Source: a virus (taxonomy: Duplodnaviria; Heunggongvirae; Uroviricota; Caudoviricetes). From it: DNA of 63,257 nt. The stretch lies in IMG/VR virus record IMGVR_UViG_3300032167_002310; one strand, 5' to 3'. A model generated the notes under the pieces. It ran no database searches. It saw nothing but the letters and a program-made list of their open reading frames with translations, and was not told the origin of the DNA. The position numbers and the translations under genes are program-made. This document shows positions 5,204 through 60,534 of the stretch, in pieces; the stretch's first letter is position 1, and each line of letters starts with the position of its first letter.

Positions 5204-7956
5204 CAAACCCTTTGTTAGACAAAGAGTTCTTGAGATTATTAGACCAGCAGAAAGAAAGAGAAATTTTCGCCCGTGTAGTATCATTAAATTTTAAAGAGGA
5301 ACCCTTGGAAGAAATTACTGGTAGAGTAACCCAGGGTTCCGTGAATATTGATGGCAATTCTGCGGTCAGACGCACCTGTTCGGTTAGTATGGTCGCAGAA
5401 GAGCTCAACATTCATGATTATTATTGGGGATTAAATACAAAATTTGAACTTTATGTTGGTTTAACTAATGATATTGAACCCAAATATCCAGATATTATCT
5501 GGTTCCCGCAGGGAACATTTTTAATCTCCTCATTTAACACTTCTCAAAGTGTAAGTAACTATTCTATTTCTTTACAAGGTAAAGATAAGATGTGTATGCT
5601 AAATGGAGAGATTGGTGGTACTGTGACTGCGCTTTCCGTTGATTTCGGTCAGGTTGATCTGGTTCAAGAGGACGGAAGTATTATTACAGAAAAATATTTA
5701 TTGAAAGATATTATTCGTGATGCAGTTCACACCTATGCGCAAGAGCCATATCAAAATATTATTATTAATGACTTGGATGAGGCTGGCGCAGAATTAATGG
5801 AGTATAGAGGAGAAACTCCAATGTATTTCCTTGTTAATAATGACACTCATGAAGTAACCAATATGACTATGAATGGTGAACAAGGTGGTTATTATTATCA
5901 GAAATACGATAAAGAACAGGGAAAATATTTAGATTGGTCTACAGATACGATTGCTATTGGTAGTCTTGATGATTCTGAATATGATAATCGTACAGATTAC
6001 CTTGACGTAGATACCTATCCAACTTATGTACGCACGACTGATGAGAATGGTAACATCACTGGAACTTATACTGTTATTCGTGCAACAGATGGTATGACTA
6101 TTGGCTATCGCTTAATCGGTCTTACTTATGCAGGAGATTTAGTAATTCAAGTTGGCGGTACTGTTACTCAAATGCTTGATAAGATTAAATCTATGCTTGG
6201 TGATTTTGAATATTTTTATGACCTTCAAGGTCATTTTGTATTCCAAAGAAAAAGAACTTTTATTAATCAATCTTGGAATAATATTGCTCGCAATACAGAC
6301 AGCGAAACTTATGTAGACCCAGTTGCTCTTACTTCCGGTGTAAGTTATAACTTTGAAAATAGTAATATTATTACTTCTTTTGCAAATGCTCCTAACTTAG
6401 CAAATCTTAAAAATGATTTCTCAATTTGGGGCGCACGTAAGTCTACTACTGGGCAAGAGATTCCAATTCATTTACGTTATGCGATTGATAAGAAACCGAC
6501 TTATTATAAAAGTTTTAGTGGTCAAGTATACACAACAAATATGGATTTGGTAAAATATGATAAAGCTCCCGTACCGCAGGGCCTTTCTGATGATTGGTGG
6601 GAAGTAAGAGACTGGGCTGAATATTACCATCTTTTGACAGGCGATTATCCAAACGATGTTATGAGTAATTATATTACTGAATACACTTATTTGGATTTGC
6701 AAGCTTTATTCCCTGGTGGTGTTACTTGGGATAAAAATAGACCAGTTTTCTTATTCGACGTAACTGCGCTTGGTGCTCTTTCTTATACAGGTCATAATCC
6801 TATGAGAGAACCTGTTACTTACGCACCATGCGGCCACAGTTATAGTTATTTTATCAACAACGCAAATCAAAAAGGTATTTTATCTTATTTTTATAAGCCA
6901 AGGATTCCAGATGGCGTTGTCTATACTAAAGAAGTGGATTGGCGAGAGATTATTTATCAGATGGCTCTTGATTATATGGACCATCAAGGAGAAGATGATT
7001 TCTTGTTAAAACTTGCTGAAAATAATCGTGATGGTGAAACTGGTGAAAGCTATTACCCAGATGGATATACTGGCTATGAGCAGTATTATGCTGATATTTT
7101 AGGATTTTGGAGAAATCTTTATAATCCCACTTATCTTAGCTCTTATGAAACTGCTTATTTAACTAAAAGTAAATATAATGCCAATCCAACAAATTATTAT
7201 GTTCCAGTACAGTGTACTGGAACTGATAAATTTGATAAAAATAAAGCTTATGTAAAGAAGATTGTTTTTGGCTCATATGAACCTGTTGAGTTAAGTGAAG
7301 AAAATTATAATAATATTAAAGATATTTCAATTTTCTATTATTTAAAACAATGCACTAAAAATATGGCATATGACCCTAAGCAATTATATTTTGTTAAGGT
7401 TACTGGAGAATATGACACAGAAAGCGGATGGCATACAACAGTATTGGAGTCTCCAGAATTACTCAATTTCTGGTTCGATTTTTTAGATGCTCGTGATGGT
7501 CAACTTGCTAACTATGCAGTCTATAATGTTGGTAATAGGCCAAAATCCGAAAATGACTCTAATGTAAAAGCCATTTATTTTAGAGATACTCCAAACGTGA
7601 TTTTTGTAGATTCTACAGTCTCAGATGATGAAATGGGAGAAATGCATGAACAAAAACCTGGTTATACTTTTATTAAACTTCCTACTGTAATGGAGAATTT
7701 GTTTACTATTAGTTCTCAAGGTAAATCTGCATTTGACCAATTAAACTCTCATTTATATAATTATGCTTACTGTACAGAATCCATTACAGTCAATGCATTA
7801 CCAGTTTATTATCTTGAACCAAATACTCGTATATTTGTAAAAGATGAAAACAGTGGTATTGAGGGAGAGTATATTATAAATCGAATTTCGATTCCTTTGC
7901 AATATCAAGGAACGATGTCAATTTCTGCTACCAAAGTAGTGGAGAGATTATATTAA
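5200..7956 (+). CDS. Large virion structural protein (tail/baseplate, 918 aa)
   Basis: ATGA start/stop overlap with upstream gene (translational coupling); long ORF in structural block. Confidence 0.5.
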   Translation: MTNPLLDKEFLRLLDQQKEREIFARVVSLNFKEEPLEEITGRVTQGSVNIDGNSAVRRTCSVSMVAEELNIHDYYWGLNTKFELYVGLTNDIEPKYPDIIWFPQGTFLISSFNTSQSVSNYSISLQGKDKMCMLNGEIGGTVTALSVDFGQVDLVQEDGSIITEKYLLKDIIRDAVHTYAQEPYQNIIINDLDEAGAELMEYRGETPMYFLVNNDTHEVTNMTMNGEQGGYYYQKYDKEQGKYLDWSTDTIAIGSLDDSEYDNRTDYLDVDTYPTYVRTTDENGNITGTYTVIRATDGMTIGYRLIGLTYAGDLVIQVGGTVTQMLDKIKSMLGDFEYFYDLQGHFVFQRKRTFINQSWNNIARNTDSETYVDPVALTSGVSYNFENSNIITSFANAPNLANLKNDFSIWGARKSTTGQEIPIHLRYAIDKKPTYYKSFSGQVYTTNMDLVKYDKAPVPQGLSDDWWEVRDWAEYYHLLTGDYPNDVMSNYITEYTYLDLQALFPGGVTWDKNRPVFLFDVTALGALSYTGHNPMREPVTYAPCGHSYSYFINNANQKGILSYFYKPRIPDGVVYTKEVDWREIIYQMALDYMDHQGEDDFLLKLAENNRDGETGESYYPDGYTGYEQYYADILGFWRNLYNPTYLSSYETAYLTKSKYNANPTNYYVPVQCTGTDKFDKNKAYVKKIVFGSYEPVELSEENYNNIKDISIFYYLKQCTKNMAYDPKQLYFVKVTGEYDTESGWHTTVLESPELLNFWFDFLDARDGQLANYAVYNVGNRPKSENDSNVKAIYFRDTPNVIFVDSTVSDDEMGEMHEQKPGYTFIKLPTVMENLFTISSQGKSAFDQLNSHLYNYAYCTESITVNALPVYYLEPNTRIFVKDENSGIEGEYIINRISIPLQYQGTMSISATKVVERLY

Positions 7957-35163: not shown

Positions 35164-35673
35164 TTAATCCGCCCAATCAAATCCATCACTCACAGTTGTT
35201 CCAACTCCTGGTCGTTTCAAACAATGAGTTCCAATGCAAATTGCATCGCAGACGTCTTGAATGGCCTTTACATTATATGTTTTCAATACATATTCTTGTG
35301 CATTTTTCTTTTGTTCAGGTCTGGTGCGGCCTTTAATACCAAGAGTAGATTTCCAAGTACCAGCCATCACAATTGTATATTTCATCTTTTTCTCTTGGAG
35401 TGTTTCAGCGATTACACCAAAAACTTCGGACAGGACTTTAAAGGTTTGAACATTATTTGCGACATTTCCTTGCATCTGAATATCTTCAAATGCAACTTCA
35501 TCAATATCGTACTCTTGGATAAGTTCAATTACCTTTGCGCGGATTTTAACAAGGCGCTCCGCGATTACATCATCATTGAAAGTGAACTTACCATAATTGA
35601 CAAGCTCACCATCTTTAAAGACCGCATAACCTGAAGTTACGCTCGCTTGGTCAATTGCTAATAGATTGGACAT
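35164..35673 (-). CDS. RuvC-like Holliday junction resolvase
   Basis: N-terminal LAIDQASVTSGYAV (RuvC motif GIDPG..TGWAV-like), acidic DIDEVAFEDIQ segment, size 169 aa typical of phage RuvC. Confidence 0.6.
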   Translation of the reverse strand: MSNLLAIDQASVTSGYAVFKDGELVNYGKFTFNDDVIAERLVKIRAKVIELIQEYDIDEVAFEDIQMQGNVANNVQTFKVLSEVFGVIAETLQEKKMKYTIVMAGTWKSTLGIKGRTRPEQKKNAQEYVLKTYNVKAIQDVCDAICIGTHCLKRPGVGTTVSDGFDWAD

Positions 35674-36248
35674 TACGTCGCTGGAGCCATAGCGGATTCA
35701 TCAGAATGACCCATAGTGGTGGAGCCAAATCCGCCTGTGCGAAACCCTTCTGCATTATCGTCTTCAGTTTTGAAGTAGTTCTTAATAATTCCCTGTCCAA
35801 TGGCCTCGCCCTTTTGAATTTTGATAGGAAAAGGACTCATATTATATAACTGGAAGAAAATTTCACCCTCATTGTCAGGATTATCATAGTAGTCAGCATC
35901 AATAATACCAACACTATTAGCCATCATAACCCAATATTTTAAAGGAGAAGAGCTACGAACACTCAATTCCAAATACTGGTTAGGAGCAAGTTTACATTTC
36001 ATACCAGTAGAAACAAGAGTTGGTTTTGTGCCTAACTTCTTAGTTAAAGCAGCCATCTCATCAATAGTTCTTACTTCATTATCCATAGGAGAAGTTTCTC
36101 CTAACATAGTTGAAAATAATACATCATATGGAGGAATAATAATGTCCTCTGCGGCAACCATGTCATAACCTGCGGCATGTGCAGTCTTTCTGACCGGCAT
36201 AGCGATGTCCGCATCTGCAAATCTGCTAACTTTCTCAAATTTTGCCAT
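35673..36248 (-). CDS. dut: dUTP diphosphatase (dUTPase)
   Basis: RKTAHAAGYDM (dUTPase motifs I/II) and C-terminal FRTGGFGSTTMGH (motif V). Confidence 0.75.
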   Translation of the reverse strand: MAKFEKVSRFADADIAMPVRKTAHAAGYDMVAAEDIIIPPYDVLFSTMLGETSPMDNEVRTIDEMAALTKKLGTKPTLVSTGMKCKLAPNQYLELSVRSSSPLKYWVMMANSVGIIDADYYDNPDNEGEIFFQLYNMSPFPIKIQKGEAIGQGIIKNYFKTEDDNAEGFRTGGFGSTTMGHSDESAMAPAT

Positions 36249-37282: not shown

Positions 37283-37780
37283 TTACATTATATCATTTTT
37301 TCTCATTTTTGTCAAATCAATAATGCGTTGATTTGAGCTTCCCCTCATTTCAAGAGTAATATTTCTACACTCTTCCATGTAGGGCCCATCAATCAATACA
37401 TCAGCTACTTTAAGTAGCATCATTGTATGTTTGTTATTTTGTGCGACAAGGTCTTCATATGTATAACCGGTCCACACATAGATTTTTGCTTCTGGGACTT
37501 TTTCCTTTACAGTAGAGACGATGAGATATGAGAGGAAGATATTTTCGGGACACAGTGGTTCTCCGCCCATAAGGCAGAAATTTCGCTGAATTCCTTGAGC
37601 AGTCAGACCTTCAACAATCTTGTCAAGAATGTCTGGTGTAAACTCTTTTCCTCCTTGGAAATCCCAGGTCTCTGGGTTGTGGCAACCCTTACATCTGTGC
37701 GGGCAGCCTTGAGAGAAAAATGTTACACTAACTCCCGGAGCAGCCGCCATGTCATTATATAATATTCCACTATATTGCAT
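37283..37780 (-). CDS. nrdG: Anaerobic ribonucleotide reductase activating protein (radical SAM)
   Basis: GCPHRCKGCHNPETW (CxxxCxxC radical-SAM cluster in NrdG context), 165 aa, immediately downstream of nrdD. Confidence 0.85.
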   Translation of the reverse strand: MQYSGILYNDMAAAPGVSVTFFSQGCPHRCKGCHNPETWDFQGGKEFTPDILDKIVEGLTAQGIQRNFCLMGGEPLCPENIFLSYLIVSTVKEKVPEAKIYVWTGYTYEDLVAQNNKHTMMLLKVADVLIDGPYMEECRNITLEMRGSSNQRIIDLTKMRKNDIM

Positions 37781-37814
37781 TTCGTAAACTCCTTTGTAAT
37801 TTTCTGGTGCTGTA

Positions 37815-37848
37815 TTGCTCTGTAGTAAACACTACAGAGCAAATTTTT
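37815..37848 (+). other. Strong 12-bp hairpin between the zinc-ribbon ORF and nrdG; T-run lies on the + (antisense) side
   Basis: ttgctctgtagt / actacagagcaa (37815-37826 / 37831-37842), loop aaac, followed on the + strand by attttt. Confidence 0.5.
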
Positions 37849-37850
37849 AA

Positions 37851-38069
37851 TCAGCTGAGGGTATTTTCACCGTCGACTAAATAAACGAGGTAATTTTTCT
37901 TGCGGCATTCTGGGCAAGTAATATATTCCATTTCTACAGAATGTAACTCACCAAAAACGTCATCAAGACGAGATTCCTTTTTTATATCAGCCTTAGTATA
38001 TCCCAGGATTGCGCGACAACGGTCGCATCCTCGTTCTACATATGTTTCTCCATGTCGAATTACAATCAT
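37851..38069 (-). CDS. Small zinc-ribbon protein (72 aa)
   Basis: Two CxxC pairs (CDRC ... CPEC); start overlaps the nrdD stop. Confidence 0.4.
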   Translation of the reverse strand: MIVIRHGETYVERGCDRCRAILGYTKADIKKESRLDDVFGELHSVEMEYITCPECRKKNYLVYLVDGENTLS

Positions 38070-40375
38070 CTGTGTTTAACCCTCATTAAAGTTTCTTGCT
38101 GCTTACCAAGATTGAAAGCAGATTTAAAGTCACCAGTCAAGTAGCCAGTTACACGGCGCAAACGCTGAATTTCGGTGCAGCCGCACATTGGACATTCATC
38201 GTTAATTTCATCAGTATAGCCACAATTCATACAAGTATCATTTGGGACATTAACTGCGAAATAAGGAATGTCTTTATTCATAGCATAGTCAACAATCATT
38301 TCTAATGCATCAATATTATTCTTAATACCAGAGTCAAGCTCTACATAAGTAATACAACCAGCAGAAGAATAACCAGTCAACTGAGATTCAATATCAATCT
38401 TTTCAAAAGGACTCATTTCTCTCCAAACAGGAACATGGATACTGTTAGTAAAGAAGTCTTTATCAGAAACATTAGGAATTCTGCCATACTTAGCCTGGAA
38501 TTTCTTCATAGCGGTGTAGCAGAGATTCTCAGCAGGAGTATAGTAAACACCAAAGTTCAACTGATATTGTCGCTTGAATTCGGCACAGCGGTCTTTAAAC
38601 AACTGTTCAATTCTCTTAGCAAGCTCCATACCTTTTTCAGTAGTATGGTCACAACCAATTAAAATTTGAAGTGTTTCTGCTAATCCAAGCTGACCAAGTG
38701 CTAATGTACCATGCTTCAATGCAGAACGAATGTCCTTACCATCATATCCTGCCATAGTTCCGTTCTCATACATGAACTTAGCCGCACTTGACTTCTGAGA
38801 GCAAATATACTCAAAACGCTCGAGCAGCATATCTTTTGCTTCGTGAATCTTTACATCCAAGAGTTGCATAAAGAACTCAATGGTGTCGTTCTCAAGGTCG
38901 CCGCAAGGCGTAATTTCATAATACTTAACAGCCTGCATAGCTAAAGTAGGCATAATAACAGTTACAGGGCAAATATTGCCACGGCCATCTTTACGCTGAC
39001 CGAGACCGTTAATATCCCAACCATTAGCAGTTCTACAACCCATAGTAGAGAAATAAGTACAAGGGTCATTTACATCATAACCAGCGTTACCAGACCAATC
39101 CACATTCGCATAGTTAGGATAAAGTCTTGTTGCAGTAGACGCAAGAGCCATTCTCTTCAAATCATAGTTAGGAGTACCTGGCTCTTTATTAACACCAGAC
39201 ATAAGCTGGAAGATACCACAAGGGAAGATAGAGGTCTTGCGCAAACGACCAGTTCCTTTAAGAGAACCATCAATAAGAGCTTTGATAACTAATCTACCTT
39301 CTGGGCTTGTACAAGTACCATAGTTAATAGAAGTGAAAGGAAGCTGGTTGCCGCTTCTGGACTGAAGAGTATTGAGGTTGTGATACATACCCTCAACAGC
39401 CTGCTTAGTTTCACAAATAGTATCATAAAGTGCGCCTTGGTAAAGAACTGGGTCAAGTTTTGCCTTATTGTCCAATCTAAAGTCAGCTTCTGTTAAACCA
39501 AACTTATTAAGGAATACGGCTTTATTTTCATCAACCCACTCGTCAAATTTATTACGAATAATTCCAACTTCATCTTTATAGTTGTCGAACAACATACCCA
39601 TTAAATCCAATCCCAAGAAATCAGGAGTTGTCTTTAAGTATCCAACAACATAGTGCTTAAAGAAAGACTTGCGCACATATGGAACAGCAGTCCAGTCAAG
39701 GTGAGTTGCAGAAACGCCACCAAACTGCTGTAAACTCTGAAGCTGGAATAAAACAGCAACGAGCTGGAACATTGTATTCACAGAGTTAGCTGGGCGCACG
39801 TCTGTCTGACGAGTATTAAAACCATTAGCGAGCAAATCATCAAATGGAATAGAAAGACAGTTGTGCATACCAACGGCATATGCGCCAAGGTCATGAATAT
39901 AAATTTCATTATTCTCGTGGTTAGCACGAGCCATAGGAGAAACGCAGAAATCTAATGCGTATCTCTTGGTTAAATAATCAGTAGCTTCGCCCATTCTTCC
40001 GCCGAAAGAATGTTCATCAACGTTTGCGTTCTGGTTCTGAACGTTGGAAGCCTGAAGCTTTTCTGAAATAGCAGCCAAGAAATCATCTGAGTAGTTTCTT
40101 GCTACTTCCTTCTTATATCTATAACGAATATATGCGCGGGCTACGTCACGACGCTCGGAGCGCATGAGAAAGTCCTCAACACAATTCTGAATAGCTTCAA
40201 CGGAAATATCAGAAGAAGATTTTTCTACTAAACTTTCAATTTCATCAGCAATATCTTCGGCAGTATCAGTTTCGTACAAAATGCCATCAACATCTAAGAA
40301 CGCACTATTAATAGCATTAATTATCTTTTGTTTGTCAAAAGGAACTTGTGTTCCATCTCTTTTAACAATATACAT
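38066..40375 (-). CDS. nrdD: Anaerobic ribonucleoside-triphosphate reductase (class III RNR)
   Basis: 769 aa; C-terminal zinc ribbon CMNCGYTDEINDECPMCGC and glycyl-radical motif RVTGYLTG near the C-terminus. Confidence 0.9.
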   Translation of the reverse strand: MYIVKRDGTQVPFDKQKIINAINSAFLDVDGILYETDTAEDIADEIESLVEKSSSDISVEAIQNCVEDFLMRSERRDVARAYIRYRYKKEVARNYSDDFLAAISEKLQASNVQNQNANVDEHSFGGRMGEATDYLTKRYALDFCVSPMARANHENNEIYIHDLGAYAVGMHNCLSIPFDDLLANGFNTRQTDVRPANSVNTMFQLVAVLFQLQSLQQFGGVSATHLDWTAVPYVRKSFFKHYVVGYLKTTPDFLGLDLMGMLFDNYKDEVGIIRNKFDEWVDENKAVFLNKFGLTEADFRLDNKAKLDPVLYQGALYDTICETKQAVEGMYHNLNTLQSRSGNQLPFTSINYGTCTSPEGRLVIKALIDGSLKGTGRLRKTSIFPCGIFQLMSGVNKEPGTPNYDLKRMALASTATRLYPNYANVDWSGNAGYDVNDPCTYFSTMGCRTANGWDINGLGQRKDGRGNICPVTVIMPTLAMQAVKYYEITPCGDLENDTIEFFMQLLDVKIHEAKDMLLERFEYICSQKSSAAKFMYENGTMAGYDGKDIRSALKHGTLALGQLGLAETLQILIGCDHTTEKGMELAKRIEQLFKDRCAEFKRQYQLNFGVYYTPAENLCYTAMKKFQAKYGRIPNVSDKDFFTNSIHVPVWREMSPFEKIDIESQLTGYSSAGCITYVELDSGIKNNIDALEMIVDYAMNKDIPYFAVNVPNDTCMNCGYTDEINDECPMCGCTEIQRLRRVTGYLTGDFKSAFNLGKQQETLMRVKHR

Positions 40376-40496: not shown

Positions 40497-41057
40497 TTAG
40501 AGCTGGGACACAATCGTCCTTACAGCTGCCCTAAATTCTTCTCGAGTGTCATTCGGTAGGACTTGGAATTCGAACCCCAAATCTGAAAAGTCATCTCTAT
40601 CAGCCTTAAATCTGCGGATAATTTCATCCACGTCTGGATTCTCTTCTCTATTAAGTTGACGAATTAATCTATTTTTATCAGTAGCATGAACATAGTACAC
40701 GGTCACATCCACAAGTGGAGACTCCAAGAGAGCGTCAATACCATCAGGATTGAATACTCCAATGTTCACAACGTTTTCGTCAAGTGACTGGAGGGCCGTC
40801 CCGTAGAACCAGTCATTAAAACAAGTTGCTTCCAGCATTTCCATATTGAGAACCTTGGCCGCAAATTGCTCATTTGTAAGGTAGAAGTAGTTTACCCCTT
40901 CTTTTTCACCCTCGCGCATTGGGCGCGTAGTACAGCTAATAATCTCATGTAGGCCTGGCGCAGCTTCTAAAACAGCCTGCATCACAGAGTCCTTGCCTGC
41001 GCCAGCCTCTCCAATTAACGCAACAATTTTATACATCTGCGTCCTCCTCAAACTCAT
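40497..41057 (-). CDS. gmk: Guanylate kinase-family nucleoside monophosphate kinase
   Basis: P-loop GEAGAGKDS; CTTRPMREGEKEGVNYFYLTNEQF...FYGT matches the guanylate kinase signature STTR..R.GE.dG..Y.F....F. Confidence 0.75.
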   Translation of the reverse strand: MSLRRTQMYKIVALIGEAGAGKDSVMQAVLEAAPGLHEIISCTTRPMREGEKEGVNYFYLTNEQFAAKVLNMEMLEATCFNDWFYGTALQSLDENVVNIGVFNPDGIDALLESPLVDVTVYYVHATDKNRLIRQLNREENPDVDEIIRRFKADRDDFSDLGFEFQVLPNDTREEFRAAVRTIVSQL

Positions 41058-41256
41058 ATCTCAGCACTCCTGGTACCTCCCCTTCCCAGAAAGTCTGACG
41101 CCCATCACAGTCCTTATTAGTGCATTCAAAAGGATATTGCGCGGGGTAAGAAGTCAATACCATGCCTGTGTGGCGCATAATCGCGCCACACTTATCACAG
41201 TATGCTTCTTCAATATAAGCTCTTTTTACATATTTCTTTTTAAGCATCTTCCTCAA
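41029..41256 (-). CDS. Small zinc-finger protein (75 aa)
   Basis: CDKCG ... CTNKDCDG cysteine pairs; overlaps both neighbours. Confidence 0.35.
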   Translation of the reverse strand: MRKMLKKKYVKRAYIEEAYCDKCGAIMRHTGMVLTSYPAQYPFECTNKDCDGRQTFWEGEVPGVLRYEFEEDADV

Positions 41257-44200
41257 TACCTCTTTGATATCTCTGGTCTTTCAATACCAAGTCACCATTT
41301 TCGTCAATGCTTTCAATTCTATACAACTGATGTCCACCAGTACTCTGATACTTCTTGGCAACAAAATCATCACCAGAACGAATACCTTGAACAACAATCA
41401 TATTTCCACGATTGAACCAAGATTTCTCAACTACGTGCTTAACACCATCAGCTCCCTTTTCGGAAATCTGCTTGTCAAACAATGAGAAATATTCTTTTCT
41501 GAATTTAACATCAACAACTCCTGAATTTGTCAACAGAGTTACTGTGCTCTTGGTTTTATTCTTTGCAATACAAGTTCCACAAATCTTGTGAATCTTAAAA
41601 ATCTTAACTTCTTGTCCTGCACGAGACATGAAGGTTCTTTCAACAATCGGTTCTTCTGGCAGGCTGTGGAAATTAACCAAACCATATTTACCCATGTTTA
41701 CATCTTTCAACTCATGGTCATGATAATAGAAGCAAAGCACTTCCATCTCCCAAGCGGAGATATTTCCAAGAGCATATTTATTCCAATCTTCAAGGAAGAT
41801 TTGAGTATTCAAAGCTTGTAAAATTCCATCTTTATCAGATGCAATCCAATTACGAACTTTATCCATCCAAGGCTGATATGCTTTCTTATCCCATTCGCTT
41901 ATATTTAACATATAGTTATCTGCTACGACATTGAGCAATCCTTCATATCCTAATTCCATTACGAAGTTTAATCCTCTTTCATCAAGATAGTAATACTTAG
42001 GGTCTCTGCCCTTGCACATAGCTTTGAGATATCTATTGAATTCAAAAACTCTTTTTGCAGTTACAAGGTCTTCATTTTCAGTTGGAATGATACCATACTT
42101 AATCAATCCACCCATATTCTGCAAAGTAATTCTCTTTTTCTTATCACAAGTTTCCCAGAGATACCATCCCATACAAAGTTTTCTATCCATCATTTCATCA
42201 AAGGCTCCGCCCTTAATCAAAGAAATCATAGCCTGCTTGCCAGGTTTAACTTTGTTTAAGAAATCTCTTGGAGAAACATAAGGTCTGTTTGCAATCGTGT
42301 TAGCAATAACATCATCACCGACATTCAACATACCCTTCAAACCGAACAAGATTCTATTGTTCTCAACGTCCGGCGCAAAACCATAGTCAGACTTGTTGAT
42401 ATTTGCCAAACTAACTTTGATACCAACTGACATAATATCTCCAATTGCTTTCGCAATCTTACCATAGTCAGTTGAGCCACCTGCTTCTTCATCAGTCGCA
42501 CCACTGTTTACAATTAAGCAAGCAGTGTTCCAATAAATCGGATTGAAATTGATTACAAAGTAGATAGATTGCATACCAACAAAAGAATAAGGAAGTGAAT
42601 GGTTCAAGCTAAACGCATAACCAAGCTGAGGCGCAATCGCATTTTCCCAGAAATAGTCAGCAACCATTCTGTCCTCAAAGCTTCCATATACCTGTTCGCG
42701 CAACTCTGGAATCTTGCTCATTTGTTTCTTACCAACAATCTTACGAGCGTTATTTGCTTCACCGAGCGTAAATCCGGCAACATCCATAAGAAGTTCCATC
42801 ATCTGCTCCTGGAGAGCGCAACATCCCCAATACTGGTCACAATGTTTATGCATTAACTCTCTCTGTTGGTCAGTAAATCTTGCTCTCTGCATTTCTGCAT
42901 CGAATACTTCCAAGCCTTGATTCTGAATACGAACATATCTGTCCTGCTGAGACTCCTTGCCTTTTTCAGACATAAGTCTCATCATAGCGTTCGCTGCAGT
43001 CATCTCCATAGGGTTTTGAGGTTTAAGCTTTTTCGCAATCGCCAAACCTACGCCAGTAGAGAACTGGAATACGTCAAGAACATCACCCAAAGCCAAATGT
43101 TCCCAAAGTCTTGGGTCTGTCGTATCCATAATCTCAGGATGAATGTATTTATTATATAATTCACGAATTGTGAATTCAGCTTCAACAACTTTATCTTTCT
43201 GTAATAACTCGAAACACTTGATAATTTTATCAGAAATTTCAGTTACAAGGAAGTCGTACTTTGTATCACCCGCTGCTTCCGCTTTATGTAGGTCGTAGCA
43301 AGTAATCAAGTCGCCTCCTGGAGTCTTCATGAAAGATGCAGTTTCAAATGGGTCATCACCATAAAGAATAACACCAGACGCATGAGAAGAACGCTTATTT
43401 ACAAGACCTTCAATTCTTTCAATAATATCCAAAAGACCAGGATATTGATTTACTTCACGAATGAAAGCCTGAACTGGTTTTCTACCTTTTTCCTCACTAC
43501 CATGAATAACTTCACTAATAGACCACAAAAATCCACGCTCTTGTGGAATCAGCGAAGACATGTATTGAGCTTGGTCAACATCAATTCCATCTGGGAAGTC
43601 ATCACTCCTGTAGCCTCTGCAAGCCGTGAGAACTGCTGACTTAGTTCCTTCAGTTCCGAAAGTTGCGACCTGAATGAGTCCGAATTCTCCTCGCTCTTTT
43701 CTGATAGCTTCGAAGATTGCTGGTCGTTTACTTGGTGCCAAGTCAATGTCGATATCTGGCAACTCTGCTCTTTCTTTATTGAGGAATCGCCAGTAAGGCA
43801 ACTTCCATCTGATTGGGTCGAGCTGAGTGATTCCAAGTAAGTAGTTCGATAGGAATCCAGTTGCTGAACCTCGTCCAGGGCCAACTGTACTTCCGCATTC
43901 CCAAAATAAGTCGATGTAGTGCTTAAAGGTGTTGAAATATGCGAATAAGCAGTCATCTAACTTCTCTCCAATATATTTAATTACATCAGCTTCGATTTCC
44001 AATCTCTGAGCATATTCACTATTGCCATCGAGATTCATTTCAATCAACTTGTTGATGCATTCATTTGCCCAGTATCTTTCTTGAACATTATCAGACACCA
44101 ACAAATCACGAATTGTTGGATACATATCCCATTCCCAAGCAGAACACTTAGGATAATCTTTTACTTCAACCTTTGGAATAATCTGATTTCTTTCAAGAGA

Positions 44201-45121
44201 ATACCAAGTAATTTTATCTTTAACTTCATTAGTATTATCTAAAATCCACTGAACAATATCTGCAGGATCTTCGTGAATATCCTCTGCATCAAAACATGGT
44301 TTCAAAAGTTCAGTTACTTCTTCTACAGTCATCAAACGAGAGAACTCGTAGAAAGAGTCAACCTCACGCTCGCCACCTTTAGAATTCAGATAAGCCTTAT
44401 GAACTTGTCTATCTTCAGTTGTAAGATAATGTGCATCTGTTCCCACAACCATCTTAACGCCCATTGCTTTTGCAATTCTATAGAGCTTATGATTAACAAT
44501 CATCTGGTCCTGCATAGTGGAAGGCGCACATTCAATATAGAAATCATCACCAAAAACATCTTTACAAAATGTGACAAATTCTACAATCTGACTATGATAC
44601 TCGCGCATTGCTTTAGTATCATTCACATCGGCCGCAAGTTCCATAGCCAAAGCTAAAGTGGAAAGTTCTCCACCCATACATGCTGTAGTCGCAACCACAT
44701 GACCTCTATACTTATTCATTACCTCTTGGAGTTCAGATTTAAGCAGAGGTACACGCTCCATTCGTCTATCTTCATAGCTATTATACCATGCGATAGAACT
44801 CATTTCACGAAGAGCTTTGTGACCCAAAGCATCTTTCGCACCAAGAATGAAGTGGTAATATTTTTGACCACGACTTCTATCTTCAGTTAAATAAATCTCA
44901 TTGCCAAGACCAATCGTGAAATCTGGGTCAATTTCTTTTAGCTTCTTTGCATACTGATTTACCTCCATGTGTGCTGAAAGACACTCATGGTCGGTAATCA
45001 TAATGCCACTGAGACCCATCTCTCTGGCTTTGTCAATGAGAGCTTTTGGTTTGTTAATACAGTCTAACAAACGGATATTGGAATATTCTGTGTGATTATG
45101 AATCCCGAAATAAGTTCCCAT
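41240..45121 (-). CDS. dnaE: DNA polymerase III alpha subunit (DnaE-type replicative polymerase with N-terminal PHP domain)
   Basis: 1293 aa; PHP signature GIHNHTEYSNIRLLD ... GIMITDHECL at the N-terminus. Confidence 0.85.
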   Translation of the reverse strand: MGTYFGIHNHTEYSNIRLLDCINKPKALIDKAREMGLSGIMITDHECLSAHMEVNQYAKKLKEIDPDFTIGLGNEIYLTEDRSRGQKYYHFILGAKDALGHKALREMSSIAWYNSYEDRRMERVPLLKSELQEVMNKYRGHVVATTACMGGELSTLALAMELAADVNDTKAMREYHSQIVEFVTFCKDVFGDDFYIECAPSTMQDQMIVNHKLYRIAKAMGVKMVVGTDAHYLTTEDRQVHKAYLNSKGGEREVDSFYEFSRLMTVEEVTELLKPCFDAEDIHEDPADIVQWILDNTNEVKDKITWYSLERNQIIPKVEVKDYPKCSAWEWDMYPTIRDLLVSDNVQERYWANECINKLIEMNLDGNSEYAQRLEIEADVIKYIGEKLDDCLFAYFNTFKHYIDLFWECGSTVGPGRGSATGFLSNYLLGITQLDPIRWKLPYWRFLNKERAELPDIDIDLAPSKRPAIFEAIRKERGEFGLIQVATFGTEGTKSAVLTACRGYRSDDFPDGIDVDQAQYMSSLIPQERGFLWSISEVIHGSEEKGRKPVQAFIREVNQYPGLLDIIERIEGLVNKRSSHASGVILYGDDPFETASFMKTPGGDLITCYDLHKAEAAGDTKYDFLVTEISDKIIKCFELLQKDKVVEAEFTIRELYNKYIHPEIMDTTDPRLWEHLALGDVLDVFQFSTGVGLAIAKKLKPQNPMEMTAANAMMRLMSEKGKESQQDRYVRIQNQGLEVFDAEMQRARFTDQQRELMHKHCDQYWGCCALQEQMMELLMDVAGFTLGEANNARKIVGKKQMSKIPELREQVYGSFEDRMVADYFWENAIAPQLGYAFSLNHSLPYSFVGMQSIYFVINFNPIYWNTACLIVNSGATDEEAGGSTDYGKIAKAIGDIMSVGIKVSLANINKSDYGFAPDVENNRILFGLKGMLNVGDDVIANTIANRPYVSPRDFLNKVKPGKQAMISLIKGGAFDEMMDRKLCMGWYLWETCDKKKRITLQNMGGLIKYGIIPTENEDLVTAKRVFEFNRYLKAMCKGRDPKYYYLDERGLNFVMELGYEGLLNVVADNYMLNISEWDKKAYQPWMDKVRNWIASDKDGILQALNTQIFLEDWNKYALGNISAWEMEVLCFYYHDHELKDVNMGKYGLVNFHSLPEEPIVERTFMSRAGQEVKIFKIHKICGTCIAKNKTKSTVTLLTNSGVVDVKFRKEYFSLFDKQISEKGADGVKHVVEKSWFNRGNMIVVQGIRSGDDFVAKKYQSTGGHQLYRIESIDENGDLVLKDQRYQRGIEEDA

Positions 45122-57780: not shown

Positions 57781-58272
57781 TTAGTGTCTTCTATAATGTT
57801 GGTATTGGTAGTTAACTCCATTGTAATCGTAGGTTTCTGAACTTTCATCCTGCTCCCATTCTTCCATCTCGTCGAGATTTGGGAAATAAGTGTCCACATT
57901 ATCGTGGTCTTTCAAGATTTTAGTTACATAAACTTCTTGGCAATATGGAAGTAATTCACGATAAATCATTCCACCGCCAATAATAAACACTGGAATACCA
58001 AGATCCAATTCCAAGAATGCTTTGACTTCTTCCATGCTTGAGTGTTTGATATCTATATCATTATCATCGACTTCTTGCGAAGTAACAATGATATTGAATC
58101 TGTTAGGAAGAGGTTTCTTTGGAAGGGAGTCCCAAGTCTTTCTGCCCATAACTACGGTTGAATCATCAGTTAACTGCTTAAAACGCTTTAAATCATCGGG
58201 AATGCGTTCCAAGAGCTCCCCATTAAAACCGATACCCCAGTTATTATCGACAGCTACAATTGCCGCAATCAT
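57781..58272 (-). CDS. folA: Dihydrofolate reductase
   Basis: MIAAIVAVDNNWGIG ... LPNRFNIIVTS matches DHFR (E. coli MISLIAALAVDRVIG ... LPGRKNIILSS). Confidence 0.9.
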   Translation of the reverse strand: MIAAIVAVDNNWGIGFNGELLERIPDDLKRFKQLTDDSTVVMGRKTWDSLPKKPLPNRFNIIVTSQEVDDNDIDIKHSSMEEVKAFLELDLGIPVFIIGGGMIYRELLPYCQEVYVTKILKDHDNVDTYFPNLDEMEEWEQDESSETYDYNGVNYQYQHYRRH

Positions 58273-58274
58273 GA

Positions 58275-59147
58275 TTAAATACCCAGTTCAAGTTTCAACT
58301 GAGGTTGCATAGGAGCATAATTAACCATGTTGAAATCGTCAATTGTCATGCTATAGAAATCTGTTACCTCAGAGTTGAGTTCCAGATGTGGGGCAGAAGT
58401 CAGTACAAGCTGACCCTCATACTCCTGTCTTTGGAGTTCATAACGACGCAACATTTCATAGGCTGCGTCCATATGACGGTCATAAATCTGTTCATTTGCA
58501 ACCATATGAGAGAAAACTCCAGCCTTATAACCAGTATGGCGCGCAATCATCATAAGCAATGCCGCATACTGAATTTCATTGATACCTCCTGGACCAGAAG
58601 CAGTAAGCATATCACCGCTACGCTGAACCAAAACCATATCAAGATAATCTCCATCTTCTGCATTTCTTACATTCCAAATAGTAAGGAACGCACAAGGAGC
58701 AAGACCAGGAGTCTCATGTAGGTCAGTTTCCTGCCAAAGAGAAACAATTTTGCGGCGACCATATGGGTCATTCTGAATATCCTTGATTAGATTATTAATC
58801 AAATCATAACGACTTACAGTTGCACCATAGCGCTGACCGATTGTGCCGTCGCCAATATCCCATTCATCCCACCAAGTAACGCCCATGTCATGCATCTTTG
58901 CAATGTCATTGGTTGGCTTCTGGTAGATAGTAAAGATTTCTCTAATACCAGTCTTCCAAGCCTGTCTGCGGAGGGTGCAGATTGGGAATTCACCCTTACT
59001 TAAATCGTAAGTTCTAAAAGTATGATTTACTGAGATGGTATGGGCAGGGGTGCCGTCCGCATAATGAGGGCGAGGATTTACATCCTTATAACCTTCACGC
59101 AAAATGCGGTCAATCATCTCATTCATATATCTATCCGCTTTAGTCAT
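58275..59147 (-). CDS. thyA: Thymidylate synthase-family enzyme (ThyA; dUMP hydroxymethylase not excluded)
   Basis: Aligns with E. coli ThyA across YMNEMIDRILREG, FPICTLRR, WDEW, NDPYGRRKIVSLWQ, LAPCAFL (catalytic Cys) and QRSGD; Asn of the uracil-recognition GIN retained; the His after the catalytic Cys is absent. Confidence 0.8.
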   Translation of the reverse strand: MTKADRYMNEMIDRILREGYKDVNPRPHYADGTPAHTISVNHTFRTYDLSKGEFPICTLRRQAWKTGIREIFTIYQKPTNDIAKMHDMGVTWWDEWDIGDGTIGQRYGATVSRYDLINNLIKDIQNDPYGRRKIVSLWQETDLHETPGLAPCAFLTIWNVRNAEDGDYLDMVLVQRSGDMLTASGPGGINEIQYAALLMMIARHTGYKAGVFSHMVANEQIYDRHMDAAYEMLRRYELQRQEYEGQLVLTSAPHLELNSEVTDFYSMTIDDFNMVNYAPMQPQLKLELGI

Positions 59148-59158
59148 TATTTTTCTCC

Positions 59159-60109
59159 TTACTTAATACTATATCCAAATTCTTTGGCTTTGAAATAATC
59201 TTGCCAATAATCTTCTCTTTCATTTAACATTGTTCTGTCACATTCTTCTACAATTTCAAATGTAAAATTCTCGACTCCAATAGCTAACATAGCAGGATAT
59301 AGTTTGTTACGAGTTGGAGTTTCTGCGCCAATGCCTCTCTTGATGTGTTGCTTCCAACGGTCAGCAATGTTGGCAGCTTGGCCGATATAACACATACCAT
59401 TTTCTATATTGGTAATTTTATAAATTCCAGTGTGGACACCTTTACCTACAACTCTACCAATTAAGTCTGTATATGGATTTTCATAATAAACTTTCCAAAT
59501 AACCTTATTTAAAGGTTCGCTATCTCTTAAGTATGGAGTGACCTCACGCAACCTTTCGATTTCTCTCAAATCTTCCTCTGAGAGTACAAGACGGTAGAAG
59601 TTAGCCTTCTCAACCATTTCTTGTGCGCGTTTGTTTGCTTCGACAGCGGCGTTGGTTAATGCACGCATTGTATCCAACTCGCTCTCTACTTCGGATAGTT
59701 CTATTCTCTTGGTTGAGATATTCGAAGTGAAGTATTCCATCAAATCTCGAAGTGTATCGAGATATTCGGCCTCTGCTTCAGCTTCGCTTTGACGAAATTT
59801 CTCACCAATAGCCAAAGCAGATGAAGAGAGTTTTTCCTGCATTTCATTCATTGCAGACTCATATACTGCGGAAGCCGATTGGCGGTTATTTTCCATCATT
59901 TGTTGAAGACTTGCGCTTACCTCGTCTCGACGAGCGGTCATCGCATATGTCTCCGCGTTTAGGTTAGCGAGCTCCTCTCGGAGTTCGTTGTTTTTGTTGA
60001 GTGTAGCTAAATCCAGCTCTTGCGCAACTTTCATTTTCGGACGCAATACGAAATAAACCGAAATTGCGCCGATAGCCAAACCAGCTACAATGCCGAGGAA
60101 TATTAACAT
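59159..60109 (-). CDS. Membrane-anchored coiled-coil protein with C-terminal GIY-YIG nuclease domain
   Basis: N-terminal TM LIFLGIVAGLAIGAISVYFVL; ~170-aa coiled coil; C-terminal GIYKITNIENGMCYIGQAANIADRWKQH ... E ... N (GIY-YIG signature with conserved R, H, E). Confidence 0.65.
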   Translation of the reverse strand: MLIFLGIVAGLAIGAISVYFVLRPKMKVAQELDLATLNKNNELREELANLNAETYAMTARRDEVSASLQQMMENNRQSASAVYESAMNEMQEKLSSSALAIGEKFRQSEAEAEAEYLDTLRDLMEYFTSNISTKRIELSEVESELDTMRALTNAAVEANKRAQEMVEKANFYRLVLSEEDLREIERLREVTPYLRDSEPLNKVIWKVYYENPYTDLIGRVVGKGVHTGIYKITNIENGMCYIGQAANIADRWKQHIKRGIGAETPTRNKLYPAMLAIGVENFTFEIVEECDRTMLNEREDYWQDYFKAKEFGYSIK

Positions 60110-60167
60110 AGAGAGTAAAAAAGCGGGGTAGATGTAGAACCTACCCCGCCGCTTCGCTCTTTATATA

Positions 60168-60437
60168 TTACTCAGCGTCAGTTGCGTCTGGGTCGAAGCT
60201 CATGCCATCAGCAGTGAGGGACAAGAACTTAACAGCCTTGTGAGTGCCATCCTCAAGCTCGATTTCAGCAGGTGTACGAACACCAAGACCCTTTCTCTGG
60301 ATAGCAGAAGTAAAGATGCCATCTACCTGGCGCTTCTCGAGACCGAGAGCCTCTGCTACATCAGCGGCAGTAACCTGAGCGCCGTTGATTTCCTTCAAAT
60401 AATTGAGAACCTTCTTAGAATTTTCCTTCATAGCCAT
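60168..60437 (-). CDS. Small winged-helix DNA-binding protein (89 aa), paralog of the 115-aa ORF
   Basis: VTAADVAEALGLEKRQVDGIFTSAIQRKGL aligns with ARDVAEGLFISSRAVSGSLRKLVNDGF; C-terminal SLTADG vs ALTEKG. Confidence 0.4.
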   Translation of the reverse strand: MAMKENSKKVLNYLKEINGAQVTAADVAEALGLEKRQVDGIFTSAIQRKGLGVRTPAEIELEDGTHKAVKFLSLTADGMSFDPDATDAE

Positions 60438-60505: not shown

Positions 60506-60534
60506 ATTATATCAAAAAAATTTTCAAAAGTCAA
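60506..60534 (-). promoter_or_regulatory. Consensus extended -10 promoter (TTGACT-N17-TGaTATAAT)
   Basis: rc of + agtcaa 60529-60534, 17-nt spacer, rc of + attatatca 60506-60514. Confidence 0.7.

Follow-up and report, generated by a model that had tools for sequence, protein, structure and literature searches.

What use has a bacteriophage for a nuclease that is predicted to sit at the membrane and is encoded next to a thymidylate synthase? The question is raised by a gene in IMG/VR virus record IMGVR_UViG_3300032167_002310 (Caudoviricetes), a stretch of 63,257 nucleotides that was analysed whole and is called the window below. A first interpretation, made from the letters alone and referred to here as the sequence-only reading, had described the gene as a membrane-anchored GIY-YIG nuclease inside a nucleotide-metabolism operon. 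The best explanation of the open reading frame is a predicted DNA endonuclease at the cytoplasmic face of the membrane. As to its role we tentatively favour, at a probability of little more than one in three, a dimeric membrane-confined nuclease that would cut DNA at the membrane, most likely the incoming DNA of competitors. The gene and the parts of its product are as follows.

59159..60109, minus strand: GIY-YIG nuclease gene, from the list of open reading frames and the sequence; ATG start, 316 amino acids (aa), TAA stop.
60044..60109, minus strand: N-terminal transmembrane (TM) anchor, residues 1-22, from the Kyte-Doolittle profile; GxxxG motif G10...G14.
59597..60043, minus strand: helical stalk, residues 23-171, from AlphaFold2 and heptad analysis; about 22-25 nm if straight.
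59435..59596, minus strand: family-specific module, residues 172-225, from alignments and AlphaFold2; two helices leading to the nuclease domain.
59162..59434, minus strand: I-TevI-type GIY-YIG catalytic domain, residues 226-316; the protein terminates with the domain.

The open reading frame is real, and runs from its ATG through 316 codons to TAA precisely as first given. It is not a chance frame, because a word-indexed search returned 120 homologues, full-length at 58-96% identity and many of them on 180-200 kb contigs, and a profile search over 1.84 billion cluster representatives matched 27,942 proteins with E ≤ 0.001, 783 clusters among them reaching E ≤ 1e-30. The best 150 profile matches are nearly all end-to-end and 290-410 aa long. 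An alignment of 40 representatives (32-49% identity) has one common plan of anchor, variable stalk, module and nuclease domain, and the architecture proposed at the outset, with a TM anchor, a long helix and a C-terminal GIY-YIG domain with intact catalytic residues, proved correct. Structure prediction by AlphaFold2 with 15 close homologues was confident for the helix alone, with the C-terminal half at a predicted local distance difference test score (pLDDT) below 50; redone with an alignment of 40 diverse members, the model has a mean pLDDT of 90.3.

Residues 1-22 reach a Kyte-Doolittle 19-residue mean of 2.4 and are the sole segment of the nuclease above 1.6. There is no charge N-terminal to this segment and RPKMK follows right after it, so that an N-out/C-in topology is predicted from the positive-inside rule. 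Across the family, Lys and Arg average 2.6 in the ten residues after the anchor and 0.1 before it. When representatives of 290 aa or longer are counted, 119 of 125 (95%) possess the anchor, with a median start at residue 3; a GxxxG motif lies within it in 61 of 127 representatives, where shuffling would lead one to expect 13. From residue 2 to residue 171 the model is a single unbroken helix, with pLDDT mostly above 90, dipping to ~67 at 151-170, and a lower-confidence hinge at about 151-172. Heptads are strong at residues ~108-170, where 70-90% of a/d positions are hydrophobic, and weak at ~52-107, and the overall 3.5-residue periodicity of the stalk is not beyond that of shuffled controls (p~0.15). 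The ~170 aa of coiled coil in the sequence-only reading therefore stand as a long helix with a stalk of ~150 aa, but one that is clearly coiled-coil-like in its final third only. The distance from anchor to GIY ranges from 160 to 303 aa across the family (median 219), and column conservation is 0.32-0.35 in the anchor and stalk (stalk 0.32) as against 0.61-0.65 in the module and nuclease domain (nuclease 0.65).

Between the stalk and the nuclease domain lies a module of about 55 aa that had been overlooked. Its consensus in the family alignments is FYRLxLSxxDLxEIxxLRxIxPYLRxxEPLNKVIWKxYYExPxxDLIGRV; AlphaFold2 gives it a strand at 173 and helices at 178-188 and 198-221 (pLDDT 93-97), and residues 172-225 are covered by no Pfam family in the window protein or the 40 members. 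The catalytic domain that follows matches Pfam PF01541 (clan CL0418) at E=1.3e-10 over residues 228-308, exceeding the gathering score. It also matches TIGR01453 at 67 bits against a cutoff of 56, over positions 2-87 of the 215-position model, i.e. the catalytic part only, as well as the homing-endonuclease models of PHROG and PADLOC. Its GIY-YIG motifs, G228-I-Y230 and Y241-I-G243, are invariant in the 40 members. Compared by BLASTP with the I-TevI sequence of the T4 record, the window protein is 32% identical across 94 residues (E=1e-8); the alignment pairs Y230/Y6, Y241/Y17, R251/R27, H255/H31 and E299/E75, so both the catalytic Arg (R251) and the catalytic Glu (E299) are present. Invariant in the 40-member alignment are Y230, Y241, G243, R251, H255, Y271, N281, E285, E299 and G312. 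The position of I-TevI N90 (UvrC N88) is Ser314 in the whole subfamily that ends in GYSIK, and Asn (GYN) in more distant members. The GIY-YIG fold of the model consists of strands 228-234, 240-245 and 282-289 and helices 248-260, 270-277 and 292-305.

The window protein thus shares with I-TevI (TIGR01453; PDB 1ln0, 1mk0) an identical Tyr/Tyr/Arg/His/Glu set, and departs from it in most other respects. The domain is C-terminal and not N-terminal, the linker, zinc finger and helix-turn-helix (HTH) are absent, the protein is predicted to be membrane anchored, Ser stands at the N90 position, and the gene is universal at one locus whereas that of I-TevI is sporadic. The judgement that the protein would be atypical as a homing enzyme is borne out by the presence of the anchor and the absence of a DNA-binding domain.

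That universality was seen in an unbiased sample of IMG/VR loci, chosen via the YorF-like gene of the same neighbourhood: among 407 relatives the best 80 were fetched, of which 64 had at least 4.5 kb upstream. The nuclease is present in 64/64 (62 intact, two split by an insert of ~1.25 kb) and always at the same place, which marks it as part of the core gene set, as opposed to a mobile gene of scattered occurrence. Almost all members of the large clade of gut phages concerned, 150-220 kb in size, carry it. The family is large, unnamed and phage-specific, and is a variant of the membrane-anchored GIY-YIG nuclease theme. Besides GIY-YIG, no Pfam family is common to more than 5 of the 40 members, the remainder being generic coiled-coil or ZapG-like anchor matches. 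Two viral proteins in BFVD match the nuclease over its whole length. With the 5.8-kb neighbourhood as query, megablast gave zero matches in 50,697 phage records, and the phage has no close relative among them; by tblastn Phass-1 is the sole carrier of the nuclease family there.

The Phass-1 record (OQ749652; locus L001, related loci being numbered with an L) has two annotated hypothetical coding sequences at 5407-6387, WIC39637 and WIC39636, which are fragments of one gene. Read through its in-frame TAG codons, that gene is intact and encodes a TM-stalk-GIY-YIG protein of ~330 aa. The nuclease gene is broken up in the annotation of several relatives, the deposited Phass-1 included, because TAG was taken as a stop. 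Matches in genome collections (L002-L019, GTDB) lie on contigs of metagenome-assembled genomes (MAGs), many of them 150-180 kb, and the gene occurs in no isolate genome. The taxa assigned to these contigs are Mollicutes, Clostridia, Bacilli, Melainabacteria, Gastranaerophilaceae and Prevotella; the synteny is phage-like nonetheless, and the contigs seem to be phage genomes that binning wrongly placed in bacterial MAGs. As to possible hosts, relatives of Phass-1 point to Clostridia.

The two split copies, in L072 (4158-5410) and L103 (4154-5378), are interrupted right before the codon of the catalytic Arg, at a point equivalent to window residue ~247 (about nt 59369), by ~1.25 kb that changes the reading frame. 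The insert carries a classical I-TevI-like GIY-YIG endonuclease reading frame whose C-terminal region is DNA-binding-like. A search of the L072 insert with Rfam gave no group I intron model; that it changes the frame and encloses a homing endonuclease suggests an intron. Inserts of ~0.7-1.1 kb also split Sak4-like, ligase and DnaB-like genes of relatives (L008 11173-13226, L015 13296-15316, L011 3931-6488, L013 4423-7038) and probably represent introns or inteins; genuine homing endonuclease genes reside in some of the inserts that split ligase, Sak4 and DnaB. GIY-YIG genes that stand alone are also scattered over several of the related loci.

The closest parallel in design is SNIPE, earlier called PD-lambda-1, a GIY-YIG nuclease bound to the membrane with which bacteria fend off phages (bioRxiv 10.1101/2025.11.03.685801, Saxton et al.; Vassallo et al. 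2022, PMC9519451; reviewed in PMC12904381). SNIPE cleaves lambda DNA during injection and is N-out/C-in by PhoA/LacZ fusions. Without its TM segment it cuts the host chromosome, while the tethered protein spares the chromosome even with host DNA artificially drawn to the membrane, and it is through DUF4041 that SNIPE binds both DNA and tape measure protein (bioRxiv 10.1101/2025.11.03.685801). The superinfection exclusion suggested in the sequence-only reading therefore has an experimental precedent. The window protein shares with SNIPE a single N-terminal TM anchor with (predicted) N-out/C-in topology, an elongated cytoplasmic region and a C-terminal nuclease of the GIY-YIG superfamily, whose catalytic Glu is essential in SNIPE. 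As reported for SNIPE homologues, the nuclease is conserved and the N-terminal part poorly conserved and length-variable. We propose that here too the tether would keep a nuclease of low specificity off resident DNA. In contrast to SNIPE, the nuclease domain is of the I-TevI/PF01541 type, the middle is a plain long helix followed by a unique 55-aa module, and the gene belongs to the core replication module of a phage and not to a bacterial defence island. DUF4041 has no match in the window protein at E ≤ 1, nor does it figure in the families listed across the 40 members (E ≤ 0.01). Likewise, the PADLOC PD-lambda-1 and T5orf172 models do not match the window protein at E ≤ 1 and are not among the 25 families shown for the 40 members. 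The DUF4041/T5orf172-like architecture first suggested, a type now characterised as SNIPE (bioRxiv 10.1101/2025.11.03.685801), is thus apt as to layout, but DUF4041, T5orf172 and PD-lambda-1 models find no match. Judged by sequence comparison, the window protein resembles SNIPE in architecture and is not a recognisable member of its family, from which the negative Pfam and PADLOC matches set it apart.

Leaving aside homing-endonuclease models and weak coiled-coil matches, the main PADLOC defence family matched is UzuA (Uzume; PDLC03973/03974). The window protein aligns to positions 184-275 of the 278-position model at E=3.6e-7, and 30 of the 40 members match the model, over the C-terminal nuclease part where shown. 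UzuA and phrog_26160 likewise have a terminal GIY-YIG domain preceded by ~180-210 aa of other sequence; in UzuA, however, the last ~90 residues of the model alone align with the window protein. One preprint credits Uzume with a GIY-YIG-like domain and nothing further, and the name is not used in the text of the Millman preprint. Bacillus phage 250, considered as a source of a UzuA-like protein, has an ordinary endonuclease whose GIY-YIG domain is N-terminal. Among cellular proteins, RmuC and RNase Y also combine an N-terminal membrane anchor, a coiled coil and a C-terminal cytoplasmic nuclease domain. Their catalytic domains, PD-(D/E)xK in RmuC and KH/HD in RNase Y, are unrelated, and neither is a phage protein.

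How might such a protein act? Anchor and stalk would pair two chains in parallel and so bring together two nuclease heads, each with a single active site, which could then make double-strand breaks. The tether would limit cutting to DNA within about 25 nm of the membrane, and the replicating DNA of the phage would be spared by its location, not by its sequence or by base modification. The substrate would most likely be foreign DNA crossing the membrane, from superinfecting or competing phages, making the protein a phage counterpart of SNIPE. This proposal is supported by the architecture and topology together with the absent DNA-binding domain, by core-gene status in the 64 loci chosen via YorF, by the SNIPE precedent and the shared conservation gradient, and by the matches to the UzuA defence family. 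It gains further support from a winged-helix-like gene that adjoins the nuclease both in the main clade and, with the order of the two swapped, in the distant phage Phass-1, and from the lack of any sign of DNA modification that could protect self DNA.

The winged-helix-like gene lies immediately upstream, between a promoter and a terminator-like hairpin.

60168..60437, minus strand: winged-helix-like gene, 89 aa with an acidic tail, from synteny and weak winged HTH (wHTH)/Z-alpha similarity.
60112..60150, minus strand: intrinsic-terminator-like hairpin and T-run, 12 bp with 7 GC, from a terminator scan that places them at 60122..60150; ends ~12 nt before the nuclease ATG.
60506..60534, minus strand: sigma70-like promoter TTGACT-17-TGnTATAAT, from a promoter scan (11/12 matches); precedes the 89-aa gene.

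The 89-aa protein has no family assignment and at most weak Z-alpha/wHTH similarity. It is 75-93% identical in most related loci and 41-63% in the most distant, with 59-63% in the most distant of the syntenic loci, while DnaB in the same relatives is 50-77% identical, so that it is far better conserved than the surrounding replication enzymes. The gene lies upstream of the nuclease in 64/64 YorF-chosen loci. In Phass-1 its homologue (WIC39635) is directly downstream, in reversed order, and no homologue was found beside the nuclease in L017-L019. Since the two genes stay neighbours even where their order has changed, a functional link is indicated, and the nuclease may have in the 89-aa protein a partner for its targeting or control.

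Promoter, gene and terminator make the 89-aa gene a unit of its own, with a strong promoter. A promoter with at least 10/12 matches stands at equal distance before this gene in 9 of 14 loci, and a hairpin with a T-run occupies the equivalent position in 11 of 13 related loci; that its position is kept while the stem sequences differ indicates selection for the hairpin structure. The promoter scan found no promoter of comparable strength for the nuclease or for ThyA-DHFR, and gave the downstream 115-aa winged-helix gene a promoter-like site of its own. The nuclease is probably made from attenuated read-through transcripts that start at the promoter of the 89-aa gene, because the terminator precedes it, no promoter of its own was found and ThyA starts 11 nt past its stop codon. 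Of the co-transcription that had been claimed with the thymidylate synthase, DHFR and a wHTH regulator, the part concerning ThyA-DHFR is likely (an 11-nt gap with GGAG), but both winged-helix genes have a promoter or promoter-like site of their own and a terminator follows the upstream one.

Translation may be restrained as well. Many relatives, Phass-1 included, read TAG as a sense codon, and in ten TAG-recoded loci TAG makes up 32% of the Gln-type codons in the nuclease compared with ~10% in the other module genes pooled (odds ratio 4.2, Fisher p=3e-12). The share is 31% in the 65-aa gene, 44% in the RecJ-like gene and 0-16% in the remaining module genes (L002, L004-L013). This suggests that the three TAG-rich genes are selectively gated at translation, and that the nuclease, gated by a suppressor tRNA, would be produced late or in limited amounts.

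On the same strand, the nuclease is preceded by GyrB and GyrA-like genes, an NAD-dependent ligase, the 65-aa gene and the 89-aa winged-helix-like gene, and followed by ThyA, DHFR, the 115-aa winged-helix gene and YorF-like, Sak4-like (YorG), YorH-like, DnaB-like, primase and RecJ-like genes. The set corresponds to the yorE-yorL replication module of Bacillus phage SPbeta, which was checked as the module's source and has yorE-yorL; at the matching place it has no nuclease, no 89-aa gene and no thymidylate synthase. The gene order is kept in 150-180 kb MAG contigs even at 31-50% nuclease identity. Past the nuclease stop codon come two genes of thymidylate metabolism.

58275..59147, minus strand: ThyA thymidylate synthase, Pfam E=1.1e-57; starts 11 nt past the nuclease stop, with GGAG in the gap.
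57781..58272, minus strand: dihydrofolate reductase, Pfam DHFR_1 E=3e-43; 2-nt gap after the ThyA stop.

ThyA is found in 15 of the 64 YorF-chosen loci and is replaced elsewhere by ThyX or a ThyX-like gene. The slot after the nuclease is one of non-orthologous replacement (L003-L016, L029-L031), occupied by ThyA and DHFR, by ThyX or by a divergent Thy1-like protein. A clear ThyX/Thy1 follows the nuclease in L012 (1e-53), L014 (1e-29) and L030. The divergent protein has weak Thy1 similarity (9e-4 in L008, 0.02 in L004-type loci) or none, and could be a new thymidylate-synthase-like or base-modifying enzyme. Other arrangements are seen in L017 and L018, where ThyX is directly upstream of the nuclease, and in Phass-1, where ThyX and NrdDG lie a few kb downstream, within 5 kb. 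The ligase slot varies likewise, between NAD-dependent and ATP-dependent enzymes (L031). The placement of the nuclease inside a nucleotide-metabolism operon is therefore right in that it adjoins ThyA-DHFR, but the nuclease is a constant core member of a replication module resembling that of SPbeta, and in that module the ThyA and DHFR slot is the variable part.

The window ThyA scores 302 bits against the NCBIfam thyA equivalog, slightly below the cutoff of 327. Because it is near the canonical equivalog and DHFR is next to it, the pair argues for ordinary thymidylate (dTMP) synthesis and not base hypermodification. No modification genes were recognised in the scanned part of the window. For the degradation of unmodified DNA, which the sequence-only reading offers among the possible roles, no sign of modified phage DNA was seen here; ThyA is near canonical and paired with DHFR. 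The same scan gave the following genes.

35164..35673, minus strand: RuvC-like resolvase.
35673..36248, minus strand: dUTPase.
37283..40375, minus strand: anaerobic ribonucleotide reductase NrdD/NrdG.
40497..41057, minus strand: guanylate kinase.
41240..45121, minus strand: DNA polymerase, 1293 aa, PHROG phrog_405.

The phage therefore has an extensive nucleotide metabolism.

Several of these observations weigh against a nuclease aimed at incoming DNA. By model searches and family topology, the protein lacks DUF4041 as well as a periplasmic or adapter region. Genes for superinfection exclusion tend to be accessory and to change fast, and this nuclease keeps its fixed place in the replication module among very deeply diverged relatives (32-50% identity). 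The kept adjacency to thymidylate-synthase-type genes, in three arrangements, is without obvious reason under this proposal. Attenuation of the transcript together with TAG gating points to a product made late or in small amounts, where exclusion would be expected early. Finally, all statements on function rest on inference.

Some of these difficulties would be eased by host-chromosome degradation for shut-off and nucleotide salvage, like that of T4 EndoII or T7 gp3, the main and close rival, which we hold only slightly less probable than the first proposal though on balance unlikely. Here the tethered nuclease would nick or cut host DNA that lies close to the membrane, the RecJ-like enzyme of the module and other exonucleases would release deoxynucleoside monophosphates (dNMPs), and these would feed the ThyA/DHFR or ThyX, NrdDG, dUTPase and guanylate kinase (Gmk) pathway, with the tether keeping the nuclease off phage DNA. 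A thymidylate-synthase-type gene adjoins the nuclease downstream in the main clade and upstream in L017/L018, ThyX is within 5 kb in Phass-1, and co-transcription with ThyA-DHFR is probable. The TAG enrichment in the nuclease and the RecJ-like gene suggests joint delayed production of two DNA-degrading enzymes, and both the rich nucleotide metabolism of the window and the core-gene distribution suit a life-cycle function of this kind. EndoII (DenA) offers a parallel in that it is phage-encoded, lacks a separate DNA-binding domain and belongs to a thymidylate and deoxynucleotide (dNTP) precursor cluster, its gene closing the frd-td-nrdA-nrdB cluster. However, it has no detectable sequence similarity to the window nuclease (E=7.2), and it is a small soluble protein (annotated coding sequence 144 aa) without anchor or stalk. 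T4, moreover, protects itself by hydroxymethylcytosine (hmC)-modified DNA, whereas there is no evidence of modification here that would protect self. A tether is also the opposite of what chromosome degradation would seem to need, that of SNIPE preventing chromosome cleavage, and the adjacency may merely reflect a shared early or middle transcription unit. Salvage thus explains the thymidylate-synthase linkage and the TAG gating shared with the RecJ-like gene, but fits the membrane tether less well.

A broader formulation, which we rate as rather improbable in its full form, draws on both proposals. The core dimeric tethered nuclease and its winged-helix partner would tell self from other by location and destroy any membrane-near DNA, peripheral host or incoming, with products that may feed the thymidylate enzymes; this would be a general strategy of the clade and an independent invention of the SNIPE principle.

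More doubtful still is that the nuclease processes the phage's own DNA at the membrane, nicking or cutting replication or recombination intermediates or membrane-attached replication sites, with the winged-helix neighbour providing site recognition. Such a role fits the location in the replication module, at a fixed spot between gyrase, ligase and small genes on one side and YorF, Sak4, YorH, DnaB, primase and RecJ on the other, and the pairing in two gene orders with a DNA-binding-like winged-helix gene. Mobile intervening sequences typically hit conserved, functionally important genes, and here an insert targets the region encoding the catalytic site, as others do in ligase, Sak4 and DnaB of relatives. 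Against such a role stand the RuvC-like resolvase that the window already has at 35164..35673, for which reason a resolvase role was thought unlikely, and the homologous module of SPbeta, which works without such a nuclease. The variable stalk length also speaks against a precise structural role, and we know of no replication system with a GIY-YIG initiator.

That the nuclease is a free-standing or newly domesticated homing endonuclease, spreading itself and the adjacent thymidylate-synthase locus, is very improbable and is largely refuted by distribution and architecture: its catalytic domain is nearest to I-TevI, whose target is the thymidylate synthase gene, homing-endonuclease models of PHROG and PADLOC match it and the neighbouring gene is unusually variable, but the protein stops at the catalytic domain with no DNA-binding domain, the gene has a constant position in 64/64 unbiased relatives and is thus not sporadic, the anchor is conserved in 95% of members, and true homing genes with C-terminal DNA-binding regions are sporadic in these phages, one of them interrupting the nuclease gene itself.

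The clade concerned is a large one of 150-220 kb gut phages, nearly all uncultured, and the nuclease is among its most conserved genes, labelled simply 'GIY-YIG nuclease'. Its small size (316 residues), a well-defined catalytic Glu and an anchor that can be removed make the protein readily testable. If the tether does shield the phage's own DNA, spatial discrimination between self and non-self, first shown in 2025 for SNIPE, would also be a viral strategy.

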